Shown one piece after another: positions 1 to 11,019 of a stretch of 11,037 nt of DNA. Each line of letters opens with the position of its first letter. Position 1 is the stretch's first letter. Both the position numbers and the translations under genes were made by a program. The notes below the pieces were generated by a model, which was given only the letters and a program-made list of their open reading frames with translations, did no database searches and was not told the origin of the DNA. Origin of the DNA: Nitrosopumilus sp. (GTDB lineage: Archaea; Thermoproteota; Nitrososphaeria; Nitrososphaerales; Nitrosopumilaceae); NCBI GenBank assembly GCA_029861345.1, contig JAOTZM010000044.1:1-11037 (forward strand), read 5' to 3'.

Positions 1-717
1 GTCAACAACATAATTTTTAGCAATGAATCTAAAATAAAAGAATCATTAAAGAAACTGGAAAACAAGAAAATATTTGTAGATATCTCAAAGGATCTTAATT
101 CTTACAAATTAGGGGAACGCACTAAGAAGGATTATGAGAAGTTACTAGATACACTTTCAGATATGATGGAACTTGCATCTTCAATAATATTGATAAAAAA
201 TGCAAGTAATAGTGAGAAATTAAAAAATAAATTAACAACATGTTATGATGAAATCAAAGAAACACTAGATCAAACTAACAAAAAAATCATCAGAGATAGA
301 AAATCAAATGAAATAATAATATTGCAAAGACGGTTTGCAGGAAGAATTCCAAGTACAGGATATCTTAAACTTTAAAATTTAGACATTAATTTCCATTATC
401 ATTTCCAATCAAGATAATTCTAAATTCTATTTACGGTAAGACAGGACAAAGTGTAAATCATAAAATTGGTAATTTGTTTAGTCCAGTTATTGCAAGTACC
501 ATCACTGGTATGACTAGGGCAATGCTGTATGAGTTTGTCCAGAAACATGGAATTGAGAATGATGTGGTGTCTTTTGCCACAGATTCCATCATAACTACAA
601 AGAAACTAGGCGTGAATTTCTGACGGCTCTCGCAAAGTTTTACAAATTCTGAACAATCTTGTATCAATGACAAAAGATGAGGCACAAATCATTTTAAAAA
701 ATTATCAGAAAATCTAA
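1..717 (+). pseudogene. polB: Protein-primed family B DNA polymerase (casposon-type pPolB), 3' portion, split into three frame segments (1-375, 390-623, 622-717); 5' end lies outside the window
   Basis: Frame 1 is open from nt 1 to TAA at 373-375. Frame 3 (390-623) translates as FPIKIILNSIYGKTGQSVNHKIGNLFSPVIASTITGMTRAMLYEFVQKHGIENDVVSFATDSIITTKKLGVNF*. This contains polymerase motif B Kx3NSxYG (411-437) and, about 50 aa later, a motif C-like SFATDS (570-587; consensus YxDTDS). Frame 1 resumes at 622-717 (GSRKVLQILNNLVSMTKDEAQIILKNYQKI*). DLNSY at 91-105 may be a degraded motif A (DxxSLYP). One stop, two frame changes and no KxY motif after motif C indicate a pseudogene. Assigning 1-375 to the same gene is an inference. 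Confidence 0.6.
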
Positions 718-867
718 AATTTAACAAATTGAATTTAAACAAAGAGACCATATAGGATCAGTTCTCATCAGATCTACGTTAGTTTCTATCAGTAAATTCA
801 TTAAAACAAAACAAAAACAAGTGATCTCCAATTATATTTTAATATACACACAGTATCAACAACAGTA

Positions 868-2505
868 TTGATTCTAAAACTAAGTTTACTTGTTATCGTA
901 GCATTGTTTATAATTTCAATTTCTCCAGCATATGCTCAACATCATGGCGGATCACTTGCACCTCCAATCGATTTTGATGGGATGTCAGTTGCGTTAAGTT
1001 CAATTTTATCACCAGAAGATTTTACGTTTGAAGACACAAAAAGTGCAAACCTTTCAATTAGATTCTTTGATAGTCAAACAGACAAGAACATAACTAGTGT
1101 AACATATCGCATCCAAATATTCCAAGGGGACAATCTTGTGGCAAATGAATATTTTTATGATGAAGATGGAAACCTGGATTTAGAGGTTAGACCCACAATA
1201 GGATGTGAAAACAAAGAACTATGGAAATGTACAAACTACTTTGGTGAAAAACACCCCATTGCAGGAGCATATTTTGCAAGAGGAGATTCAAGACCAGTAA
1301 TTGAAGGTCCAGTGTTTGACAAGAGTGGTCAATACAATGTTAAAGTGTCTATCGTAGGTGCAACAAATCCCAAAACAATGACAACTAGTGACTTACAATT
1401 TGAAACATTTCTTTTGATTCCAGAAAAGCAGAATTTTTTAATCCAAACAGCAAATGCGGAGGAATTTCCTATTTCAATTAAATCATTTGATAGTGAGATA
1501 AGCAATTTTGCTTTTGATGAAGAATTAAACAAGATTTCGTATGAAACATCATTTGACTGGGATCATAGTAAAGAACATGGTTCTAATTCAAAACAGACCA
1601 TTCATGTTCAGAAAGATTTCCCTGTTTTCAAACAAGGACATGACATCGATGTATTCATTGAAGGAATAAAGATAGAAAGACCATTTCTCTTTGATGTTTC
1701 ATCACCAAATGAGAACATCATCAGAATAGACATACCACATAAAGAAATTATGAGCATTCATGATAAATTAGAAGAAAACCATATCAATCAAAATACTATG
1801 AAAGTGGACGTATTTTCAGGATCACAAACACAACTAAACACGTTAAACTTTTCATTTGAAAATGAATATACCACAAATGTCACCTGGAATTCTCAGTTAG
1901 AATCAGGACAAGAAATCCCATTTACGTTTTCATTCTTAGATGCAAATAACAATCCAATCGATGACATGTTGTTTGCATATAGCATTACAGATTCAGATGG
2001 AAATGAAGTATGGACAAACATAGGCCAAAGTCAAACATTTCTGGGCATTGTTGCGCAAAATGAGATACATCAGGAATCAGCTTTGATATCAAATGACGGG
2101 AATTATCAATTTACGGTAATTTTGACAGGACAGGGAATTACAAATTTTGAAAAATTCTTTACATCTAAATCAGATTTTGAGATTATCTCTTCTCATAATT
2201 TAGAAACTACAAAAGAAGTTACATCCAATAAAGTTGAAATTCCGTCATGGATAAAAAACAATGCTGGATGGTGGGCAGAGAGTGCAATTGACGATGATTC
2301 TTTTGTTCAGGGAATCCAATTTATGATTAAGGAAGGATTGATGAGGATACCAATCTCGGAGCAAAATTTAGTTTCTCAAGAAAACAAAATCCCAGTCTGG
2401 ATCAAGAATAATGCGGGATGGTGGGCAGACGATTTAATTTCTGAGGCTGATTTTGTCAAAGGGGTGCAATTTTTGATAAGTCAGGGAATCATTACAGTAA
2501 ATTAA
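868..2505 (+). CDS. Secreted protein of unknown function (545 aa) with N-terminal signal peptide and two C-terminal WIKNNAGWWA modules
   Basis: Longest ORF in the window, with a TTG start. The N-terminus MILKLSLLVIVALFIISISPAYA|QHHGG has the n/h/c layout of a signal peptide with an AxA cleavage site. The body is beta-rich and Asn/Ser/Thr/Asp-rich. There is no C-terminal TM or sorting signal. A TATA-like ttatatttta at 832-841 lies about 26 nt before the start. Confidence 0.85.
   Translation: MILKLSLLVIVALFIISISPAYAQHHGGSLAPPIDFDGMSVALSSILSPEDFTFEDTKSANLSIRFFDSQTDKNITSVTYRIQIFQGDNLVANEYFYDEDGNLDLEVRPTIGCENKELWKCTNYFGEKHPIAGAYFARGDSRPVIEGPVFDKSGQYNVKVSIVGATNPKTMTTSDLQFETFLLIPEKQNFLIQTANAEEFPISIKSFDSEISNFAFDEELNKISYETSFDWDHSKEHGSNSKQTIHVQKDFPVFKQGHDIDVFIEGIKIERPFLFDVSSPNENIIRIDIPHKEIMSIHDKLEENHINQNTMKVDVFSGSQTQLNTLNFSFENEYTTNVTWNSQLESGQEIPFTFSFLDANNNPIDDMLFAYSITDSDGNEVWTNIGQSQTFLGIVAQNEIHQESALISNDGNYQFTVILTGQGITNFEKFFTSKSDFEIISSHNLETTKEVTSNKVEIPSWIKNNAGWWAESAIDDDSFVQGIQFMIKEGLMRIPISEQNLVSQENKIPVWIKNNAGWWADDLISEADFVKGVQFLISQGIITVN
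2239..2502 (+). repeat. Tandem duplication of a ~50-aa protein module at the C-terminus of the secreted protein (period 150 nt)
   Basis: IPSWIKNNAGWWAESAIDDDSFVQGIQFMIKEGLM (from 2239) aligns with IPVWIKNNAGWWADDLISEADFVKGVQFLISQGII (from 2389). The DNA copies differ mostly at synonymous positions (tggataaaaaacaatgctggatggtgggcagag vs tggatcaagaataatgcgggatggtgggcagac). This indicates an old duplication under selection. Confidence 0.85.
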
Positions 2506-2550
2506 TTTGCCACAACGTCAATAAAAATGATCAGGACCGTACATGAAATT

Positions 2551-2961
2551 TTAGGAATTTAACATAGACTGAATTTTTGTTTTTGTAATTTGTTTTTCAA
2601 GATATTTTCTCTTTGATTCATCTCGAAATGTGTCATACTGTCCAATACAGTATTTTGTACCTGTAAGTGAATCCATTAATCCGTTCATTAGGCAGATTGG
2701 ATGGCCTGAAGTATCTGTCAGAATTACATTTCTGTTATTTTGGGCAAGTGACTTTAGTGCAGCAAATATAATGTATCCATTACCTGAAACAACTAGTTTT
2801 TCATATGGCATATTCTTGACAAACCATTCCTCTGTGGTTCCTTCTGAGAATGGGTCATGATTATCTTTTAGAACTATTTTAGAATCTTTTACTGAAATTG
2901 AATGACCATATCCTTTGAGGAATTTTACATTGTAATGGTTTTGTTTTCCCTTTAGAGTCAA
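2551..2961 (-). pseudogene. cas1: Cas1 (casposase) N-terminal domain only; ORF is intact for 136 codons but lacks the catalytic C-terminal domain
   Basis: TTG start; no in-frame ATG, and an in-frame TGA lies 16 codons upstream. PYEKLVVSGNGYIIFAALKSLAQNNRNVILTDTSGHPI fits the conserved Cas1 N-domain block (short strand, G.G.is..Al..L...gi.v..ld..G). QYDTFRDESKRKYLEKQITKTKIQ fits the start of the helical domain (Q......d...r..la..i...Ki). The ORF stops roughly 200 aa short of a full Cas1 and runs into the convergent secreted-protein gene. Recognition is by eye, not by profile search. Confidence 0.6.
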
Positions 2962-3173
2962 GATGCTTGTAAAAATGGATGAAATGTGGGTAATGCTTTT
3001 AGATAATCAGACAGAATATTCTCAATATATAGAGAAGCAGGTTCACATGATGCTTGTTTTACGGAGCAAACAAGAGATCGTCCTGCTTCTCTATGTATAC
3101 TATGAATTATGATTAAAAAGGAACACGTAGAATTCATTACATTCACAATCAACAAAAGAAATGATGTTAGTAT

Positions 3174-3278
3174 TGATCTTAAAGAATTTCCAACAAACCA
3201 CCCTTCCTACTAACGTAAGTTATATCGCGTTTCTAGGCATAAGAGGGGGGCTTTCCCTTTTTACTCTTTGTCGATAAA
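3174..3278. repeat. Terminal-motif copy A: G-rich motif 3220-3262, 13-nt core 3263-3275, exact 21-mer 3258-3278
   Basis: tttttactctttgtcgataaa (3258-3278) is identical to 4847-4867. The flanking sequence cataagaggggggctttccc aligns imperfectly with cataaatcgggggagggaggtacca. Direct similarity starts at tgatcttaa (3174 vs 4781). By eye, the only runs of 5 or more G in the window are in copies A and B. Confidence 0.85.
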
Positions 3279-3376
3279 CTCGTTTACACTTTAGAACAAA
3301 TGTGAATGGGCACACTTCATCAGTGTCAGAATATCCTAAAAGAAACGTAATCATTATTATAAAATTGAATACTATT

Positions 3377-3508
3377 TTACTGAAATGCCATTAGAGAAAT
3401 ATAAGATATGACAGTAGCTACAACTAGTGATGCACATACTATGCTTGTTATTCCATCCTTACGTTTTTGTCTAGCATCAAAGTCAGTTGATGTCTTCTCC
3501 AATTTCAT
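3377..3508 (-). CDS. Small tail-anchored membrane protein, 43 aa (below the ORF-track cutoff)
   Basis: My own translation gives ATG..TAA MKLEKTSTDFDARQKRKDGITSIVCASLVVATVISYISLMAFQ. It has a charged N-terminal part and one C-terminal hydrophobic helix. A TATA box gtataaat (minus strand, 3531-3538) ends 22 nt before the ATG, the same spacing as for the divergent gene at 3611. Confidence 0.4.
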   Translation of the reverse strand: MKLEKTSTDFDARQKRKDGITSIVCASLVVATVISYISLMAFQ

Positions 3509-3530
3509 ATGTTGTCGTTTTGTAATTAGC

Positions 3531-3588
3531 ATTTATACTTATCGGTAATGAATGGTAATAATAGGTAATTACTACCAATGTTTATAAA
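3531..3588. promoter_or_regulatory. Divergent promoter region with two TATA boxes, each 22 nt from its start codon (leaderless-type spacing)
   Basis: atttatac at 3531-3538 (read on the minus strand as gtataaat) serves the ATG at 3508. tttataaa at 3581-3588 serves the ATG at 3611. Archaeal TATA boxes are centred about 26-27 nt upstream of the TSS, which places both TSSs at or next to the start codons. Confidence 0.4.
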
Positions 3589-3610
3589 GAAATAATTCTG
3601 AAGTCTCGTC

Positions 3611-3847
3611 ATGACTTGTAAGGGCATATGTATAAGGTACAAAGCAATAAGGCCAACTACTGGCGTAGGGCGATATTTTTCAGGGCAAAAACGATGCCAA
3701 ATTTGTGAGATTTTCATAAAGTGGGGAGGATTTTGTTGCCCATGTTGTGGATATAAGCTACGTTCCAAACCCAAAAAGCTAAAGTACAAAAACAAACTTC
3801 GTGAAAAAATGCAATTACAAGTTCAATCAATACCCATTCTAAATTAG
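3611..3847 (+). CDS. Small Cys-rich zinc-ribbon protein with basic C-terminal tail (78 aa)
   Basis: ATG start. Eight Cys are arranged C3-x3-C7 ... C29-x2-C32 ... C42-C43-P-C45-C46, followed by RSKPKKLKYKNKLREK. A TATA box lies 22 nt upstream. The antisense ORF 3526-3795 looks like a shadow. Confidence 0.7.
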   Translation: MTCKGICIRYKAIRPTTGVGRYFSGQKRCQICEIFIKWGGFCCPCCGYKLRSKPKKLKYKNKLREKMQLQVQSIPILN

Positions 3848-3922
3848 TTTTAGAAAAAGTGCAAAATAAATGAGATTTGAATTTAAATGAATAAAAGAGA
3901 TGATTGGTAAATTAGTGATATA

Positions 3923-4318
3923 ATGAGCAGCGAAAACACAGATCTCCAAATTTATGAAATAAGGGCTAAAGATCTTCTAGATGAAGACGGAGTTAGATTT
4001 GCTGGAATAATTAATGAGGATGGCAATCTAATCTCTGGTGGATTTAAAAAAGGTGTACTGCCTCTAGAATCTGATCAAGAAAAATTAGAATCATTTTTGG
4101 AATTTGTCTCAAAAATTTCATTAAGAAAGCAGTATGATGATAGCCTGGGACCGATTAACTATCTTGTTGCCAGACGAAATAAAACAGTACTGATCAGCTT
4201 TCCGTTCCCTCTTAGTAAGTTTCTATTGTTAATCTCTGCAGAACCTACAGTGAATATTGAAAATTTAGCTAGCAAAGTCATCAAAGTGTTTGGCGGCCCA
4301 TCACTATCTTCTGATTAG
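3923..4318 (+). CDS. Hypothetical protein, 131 aa, possibly Roadblock/LC7 (MglB)-like fold
   Basis: ATG start. The pattern GVRFAGIINEDGNLISGG ... LGPINYLVARRNKTVLISFPF ... LLLISAEP resembles Roadblock/LC7 proteins (G...a.l...dG.li ... long helix ... v.i....llLv.a). The fold assignment is by eye only. The last ~7 codons and the stop overlap the antisense cas1 remnant. A T5 run (4321-4325) follows the stop. Confidence 0.7.
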   Translation: MSSENTDLQIYEIRAKDLLDEDGVRFAGIINEDGNLISGGFKKGVLPLESDQEKLESFLEFVSKISLRKQYDDSLGPINYLVARRNKTVLISFPFPLSKFLLLISAEPTVNIENLASKVIKVFGGPSLSSD

Positions 4319-4398
4319 AGTTTTTAAGAGAAATCAAAACGCCATAGCCTCTAAGTAATTTTACATTGTAATGGTTCCTTCTTTCCTCTAAGAGTTAA
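4300..4398 (-). pseudogene. cas1: Second cas1 5' remnant (~32 codons, start codon lost, +1 frameshift)
   Basis: An exact 20-mer aattttacattgtaatggtt occurs at 4357-4376 and 2921-2940. The minus-strand translation LTLRGKK/NHYNVKLLRGYGVLISLKNSNQKIV aligns with (M)TLKGKQNHYNVKFLKGYGHSISVKDSKIV of the 2551-2961 ORF, about 20 of 28 aligned residues identical. TTA replaces the TTG start, and one extra nt lies after codon 7. Similarity fades near 4300. Confidence 0.75.
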
Positions 4399-4767
4399 TT
4401 AACCCCCAGTTTGGTCTATTACTCTTTGAGTTATTTCAGGAGTTATCCATTCATCCAAGTTTTTATCACACTCTTTTATGCTAAATTCTTTGGTTATTCG
4501 ATTTAATTCATTTTGATACTCATTGCTGATTTTTTCAGCTTCTTCAGAAGAGAATTGGTTTGGATTAAGAACATATTGTTTCATGTTGTTTCTTGCTTGG
4601 ATCATTTGATTTGTCAATATTTCACATTGAGATAATTTAGGTTCCATGTTGATTTTTCCATATTCTTTTTCAAATTCAAAATCTGAATGTCCATCTCCTC
4701 CAATTACAATCATAAGAATTACTACTGGAATGCCAACTCCTATTCCAATCACTAGATCTTTTTTCAT
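4399..4767 (-). CDS. Membrane-anchored hypothetical protein (122 aa): N-terminal TM helix and helical ectodomain with two Cys
   Basis: ATG start. MKKDLVIGIGVGIPVVILMIVIGG forms the TM anchor, and the remainder is polar and helical. The TAA stop (4399-4401) is immediately followed by the cas1 remnant. This matches the position of ORF 2958-3155 relative to the first cas1 fragment. Confidence 0.7.
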   Translation of the reverse strand: MKKDLVIGIGVGIPVVILMIVIGGDGHSDFEFEKEYGKINMEPKLSQCEILTNQMIQARNNMKQYVLNPNQFSSEEAEKISNEYQNELNRITKEFSIKECDKNLDEWITPEITQRVIDQTGG

Positions 4768-4780
4768 ATTTCTTATAATA

Positions 4781-4911
4781 TGATCTTAACGAAAAGCATT
4801 ACGACCATAACTGTTTTCCCTCATAAATCGGGGGAGGGAGGTACCATTTTTACTCTTTGTCGATAAAAAGGGACAGTCCACCCCTTTCCAGAGCGTGAAA
4901 ATGCGATATAA
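4781..4911. repeat. Terminal-motif copies B-left (4821-4851, direct) and B-right (4865-4911, inverted) bracketing the 13-nt core 4852-4864
   Basis: tcataaatcgggggagggaggtaccattttt | actctttgtcgat | aaaaagggacagtccacccctttccagagcgtgaaaatgcgatataa. The reverse complement of the right arm (ttatatcgcattttcacgctctggaaaggggtggactgtcccttttt) aligns end to end with copy A (ttatatcgcgtttctaggcataagaggggggctttcccttttt). Confidence 0.8.
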
Positions 4912-5064
4912 TTTAGATTATGATCTACCTGTCACGTAAACAATATACAAAATAGATGAAACAACAAGGGAAATGCCAAGGATTATTGCTAATTCTTTTC
5001 TTGAAAATACACTTGCTCTATAATTCACTATCATGCTGTAAGAATAATGAACTTAAGCATTTAT

Positions 5065-5190
5065 CTATTCTTTCTTATCTATCTCTAATTCTTCTATTTT
5101 CAATTCAAGTTCTTTTACTTTTTTCCTTAATTCGATATTTTCATCTCTCAATGAATCAATCTCTCTTTGATGTAATTCATTTAGATCCAT
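5065..5190 (-). CDS. Small coiled-coil protein, 41 aa (below the ORF-track cutoff)
   Basis: My own translation gives MDLNELHQREIDSLRDENIELRKKVKELELKIEELEIDKKE*. It has a heptad-like Leu/Ile pattern. It lies 80 nt downstream of the J-domain gene and in the same orientation. The listed + strand ORF 4956-5192 (Leu/Ser/Ile-rich) looks like its antisense shadow. No independent support. Confidence 0.35.
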   Translation of the reverse strand: MDLNELHQREIDSLRDENIELRKKVKELELKIEELEIDKKE

Positions 5191-5270
5191 GAATTTTCTG
5201 CAAGAATTTCAAACTTAAGATTGTTGGTGTCAGGAGTTTAACAATTTTAGAAGAATTTAATCCAATCATA

Positions 5271-5861
5271 TTATTTTCTACTTTTCATAATTTTATCAAA
5301 TGCAATTTTAATTGAAATGAGCATTTTCTCTGCATATTTTGGTTCATTGGGATTTTTGTCGGGATGCCATTTTAAAATTAAACGTCTGTATGCATCTTTG
5401 ATTTGTGCATCTGTGGAATTCTCCAATACCCCTAACAGACTGTAGTGTATTCCAATATCTGATTCTTTAAATGTTTGCTGTGTTTTTTGATAACTTTTTT
5501 TGTACTTGTTTTGACTTCTCTGCCAAAACTCTCTTTTGAATAGCGACTCGATGTATCTCTGATGTGTCTGCGATTCTTCTGTGGATATGTTTGTCCAGTG
5601 AGCTTGCTCAAACTCTTGAATTATTACATCAAATTCATCATCGGAAATTCTGAACTGGTTTGTTTGAAAAGTCTCTTCTTGTGGAACATAGTCTTGTCTC
5701 TCTCTAAATCTTCTAAAATCACTCTCAAATGATTTTTGCTTTTTTAATCGGCGAGTTGTCTGACAATTCCTACAAATAAACTCACCAGAATTTTCTGGGT
5801 GAGGCCACAAATCAATCCTGTAAAATGATCCTTTACAGTCTGAGCATGTGTACGCCAACAT
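5271..5861 (-). CDS. Zinc-ribbon / C-terminal J-domain protein (196 aa)
   Basis: ATG start. The N-terminus has CxxC...CxxC (C6, C9, C30, C33). The C-terminus [52 protein letters not shown] is a J domain with the HPD tripeptide. The middle part is polar, Gln/Glu/Arg-rich and low in complexity. Confidence 0.85.
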
Positions 5862-6342
5862 AGAGTTTATTTTTTCTTTTCTTTTTGATGTTTTGTTAAT
5901 TTTTTATAATCCTAAAGATTATGAATTAAAAATTCAAAGTGTTAATGAGATACAATATTCAAATCTGTACGGGTTTCTATTCTAAAGGTAATTTGGATTC
6001 TCTGCTCTTTTTTCCTGAAAATTAAAGATTCTATCAAATTATGCAAATCCAATTTTTAGCTTAATTGTGCCTATGATTGTTATTTTTAGCACTGAAAATC
6101 AAAAATATGTTGTCGAGTCAATTATGCACTAAAAGGGCAAACTTTTGTAACTATGAGATGTATCTTCGAGTCATTTGACATTTGGTGTGACGTTCATTTA
6201 TGTTCCAATCAGGCCTAGTAGGAGAGATCAAGAAGTCGATGAAATAGAAGATACTGATGAATAGCATTTTTTTACAATTTGTATGATGAATTTTCAAACT
6301 TTGTAAAGTTGAGCTATTTATTTGCCATTTTTTAGGTAAAGC

Positions 6343-7293
6343 ATGATGAAGAATTGGAATTTGATATTTGGAATTTTGATAATTTCCAGTCCAATTCTCT
6401 TTTCAATGATTGCATTTCCTGATTCTGTAGCTTGGAGCTGGAATGAAGGACGAGGAGGATATTTTTTTGCACTTGTCTTTGTAGCGGCAGAACTTATTGG
6501 TCTTAAAATTGTCATTTCAAGAAAACGATTACTTGCCGTAATTCCTATGGCACTTTTAACAATTTCATATCTGATCTCATTAGAGTATGGTTTAAGGGAT
6601 TACATTATTGAATCTGCACAACAATTTGATGTGCAATTAATTTACTCATGGACTTGGATGTGGGATTTTGTTGTAATGGCAATTTTTGTTGTTGCAGTAT
6701 TAAGTATTTTCTTTGGCAAAAGATGGATTAGAATTGCTCCTGCAGGACCCATCTTTCTAACTGGAACTGCAATAATTCTTTCACTTGATGCCTTTTTCCC
6801 ATATGATACTCTTGGTCCATTACAATACATTGTTCCTTACTTTGTTCAAGCTAATGTATGGATAATCACTGTACTTGATCTGGGAACAGCAGTAGCTAAA
6901 GACAACGTCATGTTTTTACGCGGTGAACATGGTTCAATGGCTCTTCAGGTATTTTGGCCTTCTGCAGGTGTTCATAGCATCATAATCTTCTCTTTAGTCA
7001 TTGGTGCATTCATGCTAAAAATGAATATCGCAAGAAACAGAAAAGCTGTTTATTTTATTTTAGGAATTATTGGTACAATTATTGTTAATCTAATCAGAAT
7101 TTTTTCATTATCTTGGTACGCACTAAAAGTTACCACTGATCCTGTAGCGTGGGAGGAATATCACAAAATTGCCGGCGAAATTATGTTTTTGCCGTGGCTG
7201 TTTGCATTCATACTAGTTGTAATACTGATAGAGTCCAGACGTCTAAAAAAGTTAGAATCTGAAGGTAAATTACCGCCTAAAAATAACTTGTAA
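6343..7293 (+). CDS. Exosortase/archaeosortase-family polytopic membrane protein (thaumarchaeal type), Cys-free
   Basis: 316 aa with about 8 hydrophobic helices. The family signature blocks appear in order: FWPSAGVHSIIIF (corresponding to the v.eCsG..s nucleophile block, with Ser207 at 6961-6963), NLIRIFS (Arg252, 7096-7098) and EEYHKIAGEIMF (His274, 7162-7164). A TATA-like tatttatt at 6315-6322 is centred about 25 nt before the ATG. Confidence 0.75.
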   Translation: MMKNWNLIFGILIISSPILFSMIAFPDSVAWSWNEGRGGYFFALVFVAAELIGLKIVISRKRLLAVIPMALLTISYLISLEYGLRDYIIESAQQFDVQLIYSWTWMWDFVVMAIFVVAVLSIFFGKRWIRIAPAGPIFLTGTAIILSLDAFFPYDTLGPLQYIVPYFVQANVWIITVLDLGTAVAKDNVMFLRGEHGSMALQVFWPSAGVHSIIIFSLVIGAFMLKMNIARNRKAVYFILGIIGTIIVNLIRIFSLSWYALKVTTDPVAWEEYHKIAGEIMFLPWLFAFILVVILIESRRLKKLESEGKLPPKNNL

Positions 7294-8371
7294 TGTCGCT
7301 TTGCCCTTTGACCTCTGAAAGCTCTGTAACTTTAACTCCTAGCCTTCTAATTGTGAGTGTTTGGTTTTCTAGAGCTTCTTTTAGTAACTGATCCACATTT
7401 TTTTGCAATTCCTCAAGATTTGCAGTTGGGTTTCTTAACATTCTTGACTTTGATTTATTTGATAAATCTGACTGGACAAAATGTATTCCAATTGATTTGA
7501 ACATTCTATTGTTTTTCTTCACAACATCGTGTACTTCTTTGCATAACTCTATTAGATTTTCAGATAAAAACTGGTATTCTTTGGAATCTTTTTTTAAAGT
7601 TACAATTTTGCTATATTGAATACTGTCTTCTTTTTCTTTTACTGGCTCATTATCTATTCCTCGTACTGCATTGTAGATGAAAGTTCCACTTTTTCTTCCA
7701 AATTCTTTATTCAAAGTAAAAATATCCATTTTTTTTAAATCTTCAATAGTTTTAAGATTCATTTCTGAAAATCTATTTTCTGTTTTCTTCCCAATCCCTG
7801 GAATCTTTCTGATTGTCAATGGCTCTAAAAATATGTCGACTTTTTCAGGAGATACAATTGTTAGCCCATCCGGTTTTTGAAAATCTGATGCTATTTTTGA
7901 AATTAACTTGTTTGGCGAAATTCCTATAGAGCAACTTAGTTTTGTCTTTTCTCTAATTGAATTTTTTATTTGTTGTGCTAGATGACTTGCTTTTTGAAAA
8001 TTGCCTTCAACTCTTTTTGTTACATCCAAATATGCTTCATCCTTTCCTACGTATTCAAAAACATCAGCATTTTTTTTCATTATCTCCATAGCCTTTTCTG
8101 ACATCTCGATATAGTAATCAAAATCAACTGGTAAAAACACTGCATCTTTTTTCTCTTCGAGTCTTTTTTTTGCAAACATTATGGGCATTCCTGATTTTAC
8201 TCCGTATTTTCTTGCAGTATAGTTTGCTGTGGCTATTGCACCGCTATCTCCACCTCTATCTGAGAAGACACAAACACATACTGGCTTTGATTTTAATTCA
8301 GGAGTTCTAATCTCTTCGCATTGAGCGTAAAAATAATCAAAATCTATGTGGAAAACTATTCTTGTTTCCAA
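7277..8371 (-). CDS. dinB: Y-family DNA polymerase IV (DinB/Dpo4 type)
   Basis: HIDFDYFYAQCEE is the catalytic Asp motif. Also present are YTARKYGVKSGMP, DEAYLDVT, SIGISPNKLISKIASDFQKPDG and IRKIPGIGKKT (HhH). The start is TTG, because an in-frame TAG lies 5 codons upstream and there is no ATG before the catalytic motif. The 3' end overlaps the convergent archaeosortase gene by 17 nt. Confidence 0.95.
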   Translation of the reverse strand: METRIVFHIDFDYFYAQCEEIRTPELKSKPVCVCVFSDRGGDSGAIATANYTARKYGVKSGMPIMFAKKRLEEKKDAVFLPVDFDYYIEMSEKAMEIMKKNADVFEYVGKDEAYLDVTKRVEGNFQKASHLAQQIKNSIREKTKLSCSIGISPNKLISKIASDFQKPDGLTIVSPEKVDIFLEPLTIRKIPGIGKKTENRFSEMNLKTIEDLKKMDIFTLNKEFGRKSGTFIYNAVRGIDNEPVKEKEDSIQYSKIVTLKKDSKEYQFLSENLIELCKEVHDVVKKNNRMFKSIGIHFVQSDLSNKSKSRMLRNPTANLEELQKNVDQLLKEALENQTLTIRRLGVKVTELSEVKGQSDITSYF

Positions 8372-8443
8372 TGTCTTTCTATCCTATCTTGATTATTACT
8401 ATATTGTGTATTCATCTAAATAGTAAGCAGTTTCATTGTTTTC

Positions 8444-8692
8444 ATGGATTATCCTGTCTCAGTAGATGAAAATGGCCTAAATTTAAAACCAGAGAAAATG
8501 GAAAAAGAAAAACTCTATCATTGTGTATTCAAAAACAAAGCAATGTTGGTTTTCAAAGATTCTCAAGATGTTTTAAATTGCTATGAGATCGAACAAGAAG
8601 ATCTAGTTGAAGAAATTAGAAAATGTAACGATGATAAAGAACTTGAAAAATTATTTGAATCTTATGTCAAAGGACAAAACCTCAAAAATTAA
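8444..8692 (+). CDS. Small acidic hypothetical protein (82 aa)
   Basis: ATG start, divergent from dinB with a 72-nt spacer. The sequence has reasonable complexity ([39 protein letters not shown]...). I recognise no domain. Confidence 0.6.
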
Positions 8693-8733
8693 ATAAAAGC
8701 GAGAGAAGGTCTGGTTATAAAAGGAATTTAAAA

Positions 8734-9414
8734 TTGAGTAACCCTAAAAAATCTAAAGATGCAGAAGATATCTTATCTGAATTTGATTCTCGAACTAAAT
8801 CCGAACCTGAACCACAACTAGATGCACCAGAACCTGAACCACAACTAGATGCACCAGAACCTGAACCACAACTAGATGCACCAGAACCTGAACCACAACT
8901 AGATGCACCAGAACCTGAACCACAACTAGATGCACCAGAACCTGAACCAACACCTGAACCAACACCAGAACCTGAACCAACACCTGAACCAACACCTGAA
9001 CCAACACCAGAACCTGAACCAACACCTGAACCAACACCAGAACCTGAACCAACACCAGAACCTGAACCAACACCAGAACCTGAGCCCGCATCTGATACAC
9101 CTGCAGTAACTTCTAGTGAAAAAACAGATTCTCATATCCCTGAAGAACGTGATATTATTTTTGTCGGCACAAAACCCATTATGACTTATGTCTCTGCAAC
9201 TTTAACACAACTTTCAACAAGACCACATGTGACCATTAAAGCTAGAGGAAAAAGAATCACCCAAGCAGTTGATGTATCTCAAATGATTGTTAAGAGAATG
9301 GATTTTGTAGGTTATGTTGTTAGTGATGTGAGAATTTCATCTGATTCTCTTACTTCTCAAGATGGGAAGCAACGTAATGTCTCTACCATTGAAATTGATA
9401 TTTCAAAAAACTAA
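8734..9414 (+). CDS. albA: Alba (Sac10b) family nucleic-acid-binding protein with ~135-aa acidic Pro/Glu-rich repeat N-terminal extension
   Basis: The C-terminal ~90 aa [85 protein letters not shown] matches the Alba pattern (v.igkKpvMnYV.a......g...v.ikArG.aI..AVdvae....r......v..i.i.s......G....vS.IEI.l.k). The frame is open back to TTG 8734. There is no ATG, GTG or TTG between 8737 and the Alba core. AGGA lies 9 nt upstream of the TTG. Confidence 0.8.
8803..9087 (+). repeat. In-frame tandem repeats: 5 perfect copies of a 27-bp unit (8803-8937), then nested 6/12/18-bp units (8938-9087)
   Basis: gaacctgaaccacaactagatgcacca occurs x5 with no mismatch (EPEPQLDAP). It is followed by combinations of gaacct and gaaccaacacc[t/a] (EPEPTP / EPTP). 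Codon choice is uniform throughout (gaa, cct/cca, aca). Confidence 0.97.
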
Positions 9415-9634
9415 TTTAAAATATTTAATTCTAATTGGAATTTTAATTTCTACCACTTTGATCTTAATTATTTTGACTGGTAATTCATGTGGAATACAAC
9501 ACATATTGATTTTAAATGAAATTGCTTCATATGAAAAATCACTTGAACCTGAATTTTGTGAAATCATAGTTGAGAAAATTGATTTGTTTAATGATGACTG
9601 TGAACCTAAAATTGAAATTTTAGATTGTGGCTAG
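9377..9634 (+). CDS. Small membrane-anchored Cys-containing protein (85 aa from ATG 9377; alternative ATG at 9362)
   Basis: A hydrophobic helix [20 protein letters not shown] is followed by a polar domain with four spaced Cys (NSCG, EFCE, DDCE, LDCG). It overlaps the Alba 3' end by 38 nt. Its stop shares the palindrome CTAG (9631-9634) with the convergent LysE-family gene. The start is uncertain. Confidence 0.45.
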
Positions 9635-10251
9635 GGTAATATGTCTGTCAAAAACATAATTCCAAAATAAATCAACATGAAACTTAATCCTATCATCAAT
9701 ATTTTGTAATTTCTGTTAGAAAGAATTCTTGAACTTTTTGATGCAAGAAATGAAATCATTCCTAGCCATGCAAAATCCATCCAAATGTGAAGTGCAAATA
9801 CAATTAGAATACCTGTAAATGCCCATATCAACATTGCATCTGAAATTAATTTGAATCCTATGGTGAGCCACCAGATTAAAAAAAATGGATTTAATGCACT
9901 TAGTGTAATTCCCACAAGTACTGGACCGTGTTTTAAATTAGATGAGACAAGTTGTTTTTTTCCAAATACTGTTCTAATTTGTATTGCTGCAAAAACAAAA
10001 AGTGTGATTGATCCAAAAATGGAAATTATTACCCTAAATTCTGGAAACGCCTCTAAAGAAAAAACTCCTATTCCTAACAAAATCACTAGTGGGAATTCGA
10101 CAATTGTATGGCCAATTGCCATCTTCAAGCCTGCTCTTGTGCCTTCTTTTAGCCCATATGATACATTTGCTGCAAAAAGAGGCCCCGGTGCCATAACTCC
10201 TGAAGCTGAAATTACTATAACTAATACTGCAAATTCAAGGATCTGAACCAA
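9631..10251 (-). CDS. LysE/RhtB-family amino-acid exporter (206 aa)
   Basis: About six TM helices, with the N-terminal PGP motif (SGVMAPGPLFAANVSYG) typical of the LysE superfamily, and NPFFLIWWLTIG. The start is TTG; the first in-frame ATG would remove most of TM1. Confidence 0.8.
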   Translation of the reverse strand: MVQILEFAVLVIVISASGVMAPGPLFAANVSYGLKEGTRAGLKMAIGHTIVEFPLVILLGIGVFSLEAFPEFRVIISIFGSITLFVFAAIQIRTVFGKKQLVSSNLKHGPVLVGITLSALNPFFLIWWLTIGFKLISDAMLIWAFTGILIVFALHIWMDFAWLGMISFLASKSSRILSNRNYKILMIGLSFMLIYFGIMFLTDILP

Positions 10252-10305
10252 TGTCTTCTAACATTACTAGTTTTTTGGTTATGAAATAAACATACTTGGA
10301 AAATT

Positions 10306-11019
10306 CTATCTATACATTGAATCTTTTAGATGGCTTGATTCTTCTTGTGCTTCTTTTATTACTGCTTCTGCTTTTTCAGCTTCTTGTTGTAGTATTGAAA
10401 TGTTGCACGAAGTTCCTGGAATTAATTTAGATATTGCAAGACAAAGCTGTGCACTTGATTTAAAGTCTGGGCCCTTTCTATCTGTGTGAAAAATTACTAC
10501 AATTACATCCTGATCTGACAAACTTCCTTCATTTAACAGCATTCCCGGAATTCCGGGTACAATTCCATGTTCTAAAATTTTCAAACCTGCATCTTTAACT
10601 TTTGCTCTGGCTGAGGCTGTACTTCCTATTCCTATCATCTCTTCAGTTTCACTTGGCGATTTGATTGCAACACTACTAATAATCAATCCAATTTTGTGTT
10701 TCTTTGCCCACTTTAACATTGTTTTAGCTGCAATTCTATGCAACGATTGATCAAGAGTAAGATACGATAAAAAAACCCCTACTTTCAAATCTTGGTTGAC
10801 AAAAATTCGTGTAGGGTAGTTTGGTTTTCCGTCTTTAATGATGCTAATTGATGGAAAACTATCTGAATCTAATATCCCTGCTAACTCAAATTTTGATGTA
10901 TGTATCATGGATTCAGTTGCAATCGCACTACTGAATCCTACTGATGGAAATCCATCTATAAGATACCCTCCTTCTAAATCAAGTGGTTTTAATTCTTTAA
11001 TCCTAATTCGAGGAAACAT
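10306..11019 (-). CDS. PAC2-family proteasome assembly chaperone (PbaA/PbaB-like) with C-terminal HbYX motif
   Basis: ATG start, 237 aa. LIDGFPSVGFSSAIATESMI and IVPGIPGMLLNEG are typical PAC2 blocks. A C-terminal helical tail ends in M-Y-R (hydrophobic-Tyr-X). Confidence 0.8.
   Translation of the reverse strand: MFPRIRIKELKPLDLEGGYLIDGFPSVGFSSAIATESMIHTSKFELAGILDSDSFPSISIIKDGKPNYPTRIFVNQDLKVGVFLSYLTLDQSLHRIAAKTMLKWAKKHKIGLIISSVAIKSPSETEEMIGIGSTASARAKVKDAGLKILEHGIVPGIPGMLLNEGSLSDQDVIVVIFHTDRKGPDFKSSAQLCLAISKLIPGTSCNISILQQEAEKAEAVIKEAQEESSHLKDSMYR

Follow-up and report, generated by a model that had tools for sequence, protein, structure and literature searches.

A variable island of decayed family-1 casposons and host genes at an ectopic aEF-2 target in Nitrosopumilus

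Introduction

How did pieces of casposons come to lie among ordinary host genes at a place where no ef-2 gene, the usual target of such elements in Nitrosopumilus, is present? The question is raised by contig JAOTZM010000044.1 of a Nitrosopumilus sp. (assembly GCA_029861345.1), whose 11,037 nt were analysed as a whole and are referred to here as the window. An earlier note, made from the letters of this DNA, had described two tandem, eroded casposon ends with remnants of cas1 and polB. The follow-up analysis indicates that the region from ~399 to 6008 is very probably a variable island of dead family-1 casposon debris and host genes, seated on an ectopic 36-nt 3' end of aEF-2 that lies ~370 nt upstream of a thaumarchaeosortase gene in related genomes. 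The arrangement of the window is common to six contigs from five assemblies at an identity of >=99.4%.

The family-1 casposons of Nitrosopumilus (NitAR1-C1 / NitSJ-C1, NitAR2-C1) have the 3' end of aEF-2 as their target (Krupovic et al. 2014, PMC4046053), and Ca. N. adriaticus NF5 carries a tandem pair, NitNF5-C1 / NitNF5-C2, in ef-2 (Krupovic et al. 2019, PMC6563490). With the casposase of N. koreensis AR1, the apparent 22-bp repeat was resolved into a target-site duplication (TSD) of 13 bp, ATTGATAAAGAGT, and a minimal TTT leader, and positions A1, A11 and T13 of the target were found to be essential (Wang et al. 2021, PMC8464041). In other words, a family-1 casposase recognizes a TTT leader followed by the 13-bp ATYGAYAAAGAGT, joins the ends of the terminal inverted repeats (TIRs) to it and duplicates the 13 bp (PMC8464041). 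The same enzyme integrates mini-casposons of 1-4 kb with 20-bp TIRs in vitro (PMC8464041).

The window was compared with a reference set of 60 thaumarchaeal loci (L007-L066) encoding relatives of its Cas1, and with two loci on contigs of 1.98 and 1.60 Mb, L113 (ENA ERZ25072999 ctg321745) and L114, which were picked for a thaumarchaeosortase 96% and 95% identical to that of the window. Further comparisons used L003, which holds the window plus sequence to its left; the metagenome contigs L001 (ENA ERZ28013244 k141_4027533) and L004 (ENA ERZ27296363 k141_2504946); and L117 (ENA ERZ21788738 ctg58037l). A TIR profile was built from 60 TIRs that adjoin target copies in related loci and was searched with nhmmer. 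Scans of the whole window for tRNAs and Rfam families returned nothing relevant.

The repeated 21-mer is a duplicated ef-2 target

The window contains the 21-mer TTTTTACTCTTTGTCGATAAA twice, at 3258-3278 and 4847-4867; none of 200 shuffles matched it, even with 3 mismatches allowed. Its reverse complement, TTT ATC GAC AAA GAG TAA AAA, corresponds to the last codons of aEF-2 (FIDKE) and the stop codon. Both copies, hereafter called cores, read TTT / ATCGACAAAGAGT / AAAAA, with A1, A11 and T13 kept and the ruler motif ATAA reading ACAA.

What the core stands for becomes clear in related genomes. With up to 4 mismatches, it occurs in about 35 of the 60 thaumarchaeal cas1 loci. In 16 loci the core terminates an open reading frame (ORF) of 565-743 aa whose C-terminus, RKRKGL..PP...EFIDKE, is that of aEF-2; many loci have it between two inverted TIRs; and at 11 places no gene follows, just two to five more ef-2 codons. 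An intact 8.4-kb element in L028 (9641-18061) is bounded by the core and possesses perfect 57-nt TIRs (TAAAAATGAGATCCCCCC...), a cas1 of 359 aa and a polB of 665 aa, with ef-2 abutting. The 21-mer is a duplicated target consisting of the TTT leader, the 13-bp TSD and A5, and not the tip of a transposon, because intact relatives are bounded by the same core and because it matches the target defined in PMC8464041. The earlier note had taken it for a casposon terminus, a reading that is rejected since intact relatives show directly that it is the aEF-2 3' end. The window thus holds the 13-bp TSD and TTT leader of an aEF-2 3' end by which family 1 is recognized.

Terminal inverted repeats and the tandem junction

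The G-rich motifs adjoining the cores are casposon TIRs, three in number. The profile matched TIR-A at 3214-3256 (E 1.5e-4; best single TIR match 71%) and TIR-B at 4812-4834 (E 0.46; best single match 67%), and an arm homologous to TIR-B adjoins core b in L001. TIR-C was matched on the minus strand (4912-4879, E 0.23); its identity to TIR-A is 65%, whereas shuffles reached 57% at most. The best matches of the three copies to known TIRs (64-71%) compare with a mean pairwise identity of 57 +/- 7% within the family. Family-1 TIRs are built of an inner TTACGAC.., a G-run, and an outer ..TTCTA or T5; the window has three TIR copies of this family, and no pair of them bounds a unit.

With TIR-B and TIR-C on either side of the second core, 4799-4920 is therefore a TIR/TSD/TIR junction, the signature of casposons in tandem. 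Such junctions also occur in L008, L011, L013, L023, L027, L028, L031, L032, L034, L035, L043, L046, and L053. The earlier note had described two copies of a G-rich motif that ends in the 21-mer; both motifs are there, just left of the 21-mers, and the count of two was wrong, as a third, inverted TIR occupies 4865-4920. How would elements come to be stacked in this manner? Natural TIRs start with A5 and end with T5, as the perfect L028 TIR does. Each duplicated copy of the target would in this way regain a TTT leader and become a fresh target, and elements would pile up as TIR/TSD/TIR arrays, which may explain how arrays form.

A further TIR/core/TIR junction was observed in L117 at 650-735 (its core, at 672-692, has 1 mismatch, and an inner end resembles that of TIR-B). 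It lies 5.7 kb from a homologue of ORF122, the ORF beside the second cas1 remnant of the window, and an ABC-transporter operon lies between the two. A degenerate TIR candidate to the left of the window (L003 8690-8738) had an E-value of 9.7 and the wrong orientation, lay within the conserved flank, and was not used.

Remnants of cas1 and polB

The protein-primed PolB remnant corresponds to residues 442-513 of the 665-aa PolB of the L028 casposon (68% identity, E 1e-25, tblastn), and it matches 16 casposon loci at identities of up to 72% (E 2e-33). The L028 PolB itself matches PF03175 (DNA_pol_B_2) at 95 bits and is of the protein-primed type. Against the Pfam model DNA_pol_B (PF00136), the remnant scored 21.8 bits, slightly short of the cutoff of 23. 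The remainder of polB gave no match at E<1. The stub abuts the conserved host flank, the end of which falls near 399. A broken PolB had been placed at 1-717; the remnant is real, and its extent is only 393-608. Positions 1-375 belong to a gene that is not PolB. This gene, ORF203 (<1-375, frame 1, running off the left edge; 203 aa), was considered as a PolB or casposon gene and rejected: it has no match in Pfam, NCBIfam or the casposon loci, and L113 and L114 both keep it in their flank.

The longer cas1 remnant scored 28.9 bits against Pfam Cas_Cas1 (cutoff 22.3), covering profile positions 5-113 of 283, which bears out the earlier description of an ORF with the Cas1 N-terminal domain only. 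It equals residues 1-136 of the intact 359-aa L028 Cas1 (57% identity, E 5e-42). Because intact Cas1 relatives have 334-368 aa, the stub lacks the catalytic domain (~220 codons). It also deviates at K61, S65, E67, and R105, positions that hardly vary among the ten further homologues in the alignment. The second, frameshifted copy of ~32 codons was likewise confirmed: it gave tblastn matches in 49 of the 60 cas1 loci (best E 1e-8), the frameshift could be located to one extra G after codon 7, and the copy is 74% identical in DNA to 2879-2954 over 76 nt. Together the remnants are 57-73% identical to the Cas1 of intact thaumarchaeal casposons and comprise residues 1-136 and ~1-32 only. The window Cas1 is a remnant, not an enzyme. 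The window holds no full-length cas1 and no TIR pair enclosing a unit, and hence no autonomous element. Intact elements have three to four conserved small genes upstream of polB, and a comparison with one reference element detected none of them in the window; the ORFs of that element, the L028 casposon (121, 82, 123, 169, 216 aa, and others), had no tblastn match in L003, L001 or L004 at E<1. The assignment of these remnants to thaumarchaeal family-1 casposons, the kind with Cas1 and protein-primed PolB, is supported by Cas1 and PolB homology, by the profile match of TIR-A, and by the published target.

Short cas1 stubs of 31-32 codons beside a TIR recur in L028, L031, L053, and L001. In the L053 casposon, 187-nt TIRs (9912-10098 and 15306-15492; 91% identical) contain the first 32 cas1 codons. 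It follows that a 32-codon stub may belong to the structure of a long TIR and need not have arisen by deletion.

The ORF listing of the window also confirms that a minus-strand ORF ends at each of the two cas1 starts (2958-3155 and 4399-4767). The junction between ORF122 and the second cas1 stub is old and conserved, being present in L001 and L117 as well. In related loci, 34 cas1 copies have an ORF of >=40 aa on the same strand that ends <=20 nt from their start (e.g., L028 9714-9998 and L027 182-565). A TTGA overlap is frequent, and hardly any of these ORFs are related to one another. Comparison of ORF65, ORF122 and the L001 ORF59 with ORFs upstream of cas1 elsewhere detected no homology by BLASTP or phmmer. 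It is thus typical of the family for an ORF to stop at the cas1 start, and the gap between TIR and cas1 is a hypervariable, apparently translationally coupled slot.

An ectopic target upstream of a thaumarchaeosortase gene

Insertion into ef-2 itself, the commonest but not universal target, is not what is seen in the window. The ORF ending at the first core has 9 codons and the one ending at the second core has 20 codons of TIR, whereas the ORFs at true ef-2 sites have 565-743 aa. The rest of the window and the 10 kb to its left showed no ef-2 homology. The host flanks of the window share no synteny with any of the 60 loci that encode Cas1, and this place is accordingly distinct from the canonical ef-2 locus.

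The first core and the adjoining ef-2 relic (3258-3293) span 36 nt and agree with the orthologous site of L114 at 97% identity. Both L113 and L114 carry the core and a 15-nt ef-2 relic ~370 nt upstream of the sortase gene. Because both genomes do so, the site is a conserved one: an ectopic, ef-2-derived 36-nt decoy upstream of the thaumarchaeosortase gene. Homology between the host flanks of the window and those of L113 and L114 (84-89% identity) stops at 389/390, or by eye near 399, just before the PolB stub, and resumes upstream of the thaumarchaeosortase gene at 6009 (L113) or 6123 (L114).

Relics of this kind, without an ef-2 gene, were observed in the window (3279-3293), L113 (9632-9646), L114 (9627-9641), L052, L007, L032, and L009. 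Their frame reads stop-S/G-V-N-E, and marine copies share derived bases in the series TCA GGT > TGA GGT > TGA AGT > TAA AGT, which suggests a single origin. In the four further marine Nitrosopumilus loci (L007, L009, L032, L052) the relic sits in other contexts, and a sortase gene beside it was not found; L009 retains ~45 nt of ef-2 homology. Table 1 gives the features of the window.

Table 1. Features of the window, with positions counted from its first nucleotide
Feature	Position	Strand	Description
Protein-primed PolB stub	393..608	+	72 codons, motif B (KIILNSIYGKT) and motif C (ATDS)
ORF545 segment	829..2526 (ORF 868-2505)	+	Intact secreted host-type gene where a polB-cas1 casposon interior is expected
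cas1 stub 1	2551..2961	-	136-codon ORF, Cas1 N-terminal domain only
ORF65	2958..3155	-	Between TIR and cas1; TGA stop overlaps the cas1 TTG start (TTGA)
TIR-A	3211..3262	+	Outer end right; G-rich block, terminal T5 overlaps first 5 nt of the 21-mer
TSD copy 1	3263..3275	-	ef-2 sense ATCGACAAAGAGT, codons I D K E and first stop base; matches AR1 TSD ATTGATAAAGAGT
ef-2 relic	3276..3293	-	TTT leader and 15 nt continuing the ef-2 frame (stop-S-V-N-E-F), no ef-2 after
Segment of uncertain origin	3294..4299		ORF51 (-), Zn-ribbon ORF78 (3611-3847, +), DUF6659 (3923-4318, +)
cas1 stub 2	4300..4398	-	~32 codons; TTA in place of the TTG start; frame shifted by +1 after codon 7
ORF122	4399..4767	-	Ends at the start of cas1 stub 2
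TIR-B	4799..4851	+	Outer end right; TIR consensus TTACGAC...GGGGG.. by eye
TSD copy 2	4852..4864	-	Identical to copy 1, TIR on either side
TIR-C	4865..4920	-	Inverted, outer end left; inverted repeats
DnaJ-like segment	5220..5922 (ORF 5271-5861)	-	Host gene inside the variable island
Thaumarchaeosortase	6343-7293	+	TIGR04297, 620 bits

Host genes and rearrangement of the island

ORF545 belongs to a family present in essentially every Nitrosopumilus genome, and its 1742 homologues at E<1e-20 occur in ordinary host contexts. The segment is 69-83% identical in DNA to L115, L116, and L117 over 794/829-2505/2526. L113 and L114 lack the segment 3294-4299 at this locus. The DUF6659 gene of the segment scores 73.6 bits, and homologues of its ORF78 lie inside the casposon locus L024. 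A conserved ef-2/DUF6659 synteny, considered as a reason for DUF6659 to lie beside the second cas1 stub, is no more than a lead, as the DUF6659-like ORFs of L031 and L063 fall under the Pfam cutoff. The DnaJ-like segment is 86% identical in DNA to L117, where it directly abuts the homologue of ORF122.

L117 bears on how the present order arose. In it (6444-9647), ORF122 (82% DNA identity), a cas1 vestige of ~10 codons, the DnaJ-like gene (86%), and ORF545 (69%) are contiguous with no TIR or core between the genes, and ORF122 is inverted relative to the window. In the window, 3294-6008 lies on the ef-2 or leader side of the first core. Since a casposase cannot insert on the leader side and since the L117 cluster is contiguous, at least one inversion or translocation between pieces of casposon debris is needed. 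Likewise, host genes are interleaved with casposon junctions, and rearrangements therefore followed the insertions. The earlier note had proposed serial insertion followed by internal deletion; separate insertions are upheld, and deletion alone cannot give the present order in view of the L117 cluster.

Rearrangement may also be under way at the level of strains. The near-identical L004 diverges from the window after a breakpoint at ~5905, and L001 shows no difference from the window as far as the cas1 start (2960), beyond which the two part. These two alleles, both from metagenome contigs, would suggest ongoing rearrangement. In the part unique to L004 there is a C-terminal Cas1 fragment at 15661-15954 (residues 254-350, E 2e-8), together with a stretch that matches part of a cassette in L001 at 93% identity. 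In L001, a third cas1 stub (~17330-17217) adjoins an rpS26e gene.

Several other features of the neighbourhood were recorded. Both ORF545 and L001 15908-17134 have two C-terminal repeats of ~35 aa (IPxWIKNNAGWWA..F..GIQFLI) that match no Pfam or NCBIfam model. Secreted proteins with IPxWIKNNAGWWA repeats are also found in nine of the 60 cas1 loci and are frequent near casposon debris. Pentapeptide-repeat proteins occur beside casposon remnants in L003 (7970-8467; PF00805, 109 bits), L032 (1073-1477), L045 (9840-11630), and L064 (~10270-10540). In the right flank, the thaumarchaeosortase gene and a DinB/Pol IV gene (7277-8371, minus strand) overlap convergently by 17 nt (7277-7293), and the pair is kept in L113 and L114. 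Further right, a 226-aa ORF (8734-9414, plus strand) combines N-terminal acidic tandem repeats (PEPEPQLDA five times, then PEPTPE-type; 27-nt and 12/18-nt repeats in the DNA) with a C-terminal Alba domain (PF01918, 50.4 bits). Its orthologues have 259 aa in L113 and 226 aa in L114, and the number of repeats probably varies.

Origin of the island

At least three casposon ends (TIR-A, TIR-B, and TIR-C), belonging to different TIR and cas1 lineages, landed at this site. None is autonomous now, as only 136 and 32 codons of cas1 and 72 of polB are left. The present order would have arisen by internal deletion, by exchange of a casposon interior for the host gene ORF545, and by one or more inversions or translocations between pieces of debris. 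Could the two cas1-bearing ends instead be copies of a single end? Segmental duplication, the main alternative of the earlier note, accounts for their equal orientation, equal order of features, and identical 21-24-mer. However, the two ends agree very unevenly: the core is identical (21/21), the cas1 5' ends are 67-74% identical, the TIRs 53% (shuffles 47 +/- 4%), and the spacers of 250-400 nt between TIR and cas1 44%, which is the level of shuffled sequence. ORF65 shows no relation to ORF122, the closest relatives of one cas1 stub are not those of the other, and an equal mosaic exists at junctions of clearly different casposons in other genomes. The uneven identities therefore point to two casposon lineages on copies of one target and not to duplication, which is highly improbable. 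As to the two tandem ends that the earlier note had counted, their separate insertion agrees with the uneven identities, and their number has to be raised to at least three element ends.

Two other explanations concern single parts of the locus. The imperfect palindrome at the 21-mer might be a structured RNA, a terminator, or a regulatory site without a role in transposition, as ~100 nt of inverted symmetry (4799-4920) lie between convergent or divergent ORFs. Its centre is ef-2 coding sequence in 16 loci, though, its arms vary freely except for the G-run and the ends in the way TIRs of different casposons do, and no Rfam or tRNA match was obtained; we give this explanation almost no credence. 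Alternatively, the 136-aa Cas1 N-domain ORF could be a domesticated functional protein, e.g., one that regulates or inhibits casposition. All six contigs keep the ORF intact, and many thaumarchaeal Cas1 matches have a length of 120-170 aa. However, contigs that are >=99.4% identical make ORF integrity say little, and the window copy has lost the four nearly invariant residues mentioned above. The points of truncation vary from locus to locus (119, 128, 132, 139, 143, 149, 155, 163, 168 and others), for which reason a conserved "mini-Cas1" was rejected. Domestication thus appears improbable.

The reading as a variable island on an ectopic target is favoured over these explanations, and some observations weigh against it. 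The ef-2 gene is absent from the 11 kb, and the route by which a 36-45-nt end of ef-2 reached the site is unexplained. The segment 3294-6008 lies on the side of the first core where casposase insertion cannot place it. The leftmost unit has neither a left TIR nor a core, and the PolB stub and the first cas1 stub are not provably parts of one element. The TIR profile supports TIR-B (E 0.46) and TIR-C (E 0.23) only weakly. Finally, the divergent L001 and L004 alleles come from metagenome contigs and could be chimeric.

Cassettes in related genomes

What occupies the same site elsewhere? The earlier note had proposed to look for empty or intact-element alleles in close relatives. No clean empty site was found, and L113 and L114 carry other contents. 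A metagenome scan for an empty-site allele with the luciferase gene of the left flank yielded short or distant contigs only, and look-ups of exact sortase and DinB proteins returned only contigs with the same arrangement or contigs ending within the island. In L113, a 5.9-kb unit (3729-9610) with 44-nt TIRs that are 80% identical lies between cores at 3708-3728 and 9611-9631. It encodes ParB_N, HTH_20, multicopper oxidase, and YjbQ proteins, and neither cas1 nor polB has left a trace in it. Another unit, of 1 kb and with an ORF of 251 aa, takes different array positions in L113 and L114 (84% identity). In L001, a 2.9-kb unit (12448-15367) has 93-nt TIRs, the inner 55 nt of which are 96% identical, and diverged flanking cores; it carries an inverted paralogue of ORF545 (92.5%) and ORFs of 32 and 100 aa. 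Judged by these ends and contents, the cassettes look like non-autonomous casposon derivatives. No description of natural cassettes lacking cas1 and polB was found in the literature searched.

One possibility, which would extend the island reading and which we put forward tentatively, is that the site is a live landing pad. Its cores would still be usable targets, and cas1-less cassettes bounded by TIRs would be moved in trans by a casposase encoded elsewhere, so that the pad would resemble an integron-like cassette array varying from strain to strain. The TIR-bounded units of L113 and L001, the shifted 1-kb unit, and the presence of three different contents at one site between flanks 84-89% identical are consistent with this possibility, as are the preserved TTT leader, A1, A11, and T13 of the cores and the integration of mini-casposons by the AR1 casposase in vitro (PMC8464041). 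Other observations speak against it. The ruler motif ATAA reads ACAA, the TIR pairs of the window bound no unit, and TIR identities of 70-80% also fit old decay in place. In addition, none of these genomes has yielded an intact source of casposase, and the searches for an empty-site allele gave no insertion polymorphism with a clean empty site. A still wider proposal holds that the ef-2 decoy collects trans-moved cargo cassettes, that every TSD stays a target, and that this Cas1-built, integron-like pad drives strain-level rearrangement in Nitrosopumilus. The cargo named in it comprises the multicopper oxidase/ParB unit, the secreted ORF545 paralogue, and the 251-aa repeat protein. The proposal is speculative and, as matters stand, rather unlikely.

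Relation to known systems and significance

The kind of element, the ef-2 target, and the tandem arrays have already been published, and the window is a further, decayed example. Like the family-1 casposons of Nitrosopumilus (PMC4046053, PMC8464041), it has G-rich TIRs and an aEF-2 3' end with the 13-bp TSD ATYGAYAAAGAGT and TTT leader that appear as a direct repeat of 21-22 bp; its stubs are homologous to the gene pair of these elements, a Cas1 without HTH and a protein-primed PolB. Unlike the intact elements, it has stubs only, no element with two TIRs, a target copy detached from ef-2, and no match to the conserved small genes upstream of polB in the one element compared. The closest likeness in form is the pair NitNF5-C1 / NitNF5-C2 (PMC6563490), in which two family-1 casposons share one target with the TSD between them, as at 4799-4920. 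However, the NF5 elements are complete and reside in ef-2, whereas those of the window are fragmentary, occupy a decoy site, and have host genes interleaved.

Decay of a comparable kind is known from the solo-TIRs and inactivated tandems of Methanosarcina (family 2/4; Krupovic et al. 2016, PMC4779613), where one site was likewise reused and elements were likewise reduced to TIRs or gene fragments. Variation from strain to strain and contigs that break at the elements are shared as well (PMC4779613). The Methanosarcina elements differ in family, in their target (tRNA-Leu or intergenic), in a 14-bp TSD, and in the lack of an ef-2-derived decoy, and no cas1-less cargo cassettes are reported for them in the literature searched. 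By analogy only, islands at attTn7 of Tn7 and leader-repeat arrays of CRISPR also regenerate their target with each insertion and have it reused by a site-specific integrase, so that insertions build up beside a "leader". Both differ in the inserted material, and Tn7 in its enzymes; no membership is claimed.

Three points go beyond the literature searched: a decoy away from ef-2, TIR ends that would regenerate the leader, and cas1-less cassettes in relatives. These are leads and not established results. Mainly, the window illustrates that remnants of family-1 casposons are common and easily misread, e.g., as a "Cas1" ORF without CRISPR or a catalytic domain. It further indicates that the target may persist and be reused away from ef-2 as a decoy of 16-36 nt. 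If the cas1-less cassettes are what they look like, they would be the natural counterparts of mini-casposons, which have been seen only in vitro, and would provide a route for cargo such as multicopper oxidases in ammonia-oxidising archaea.

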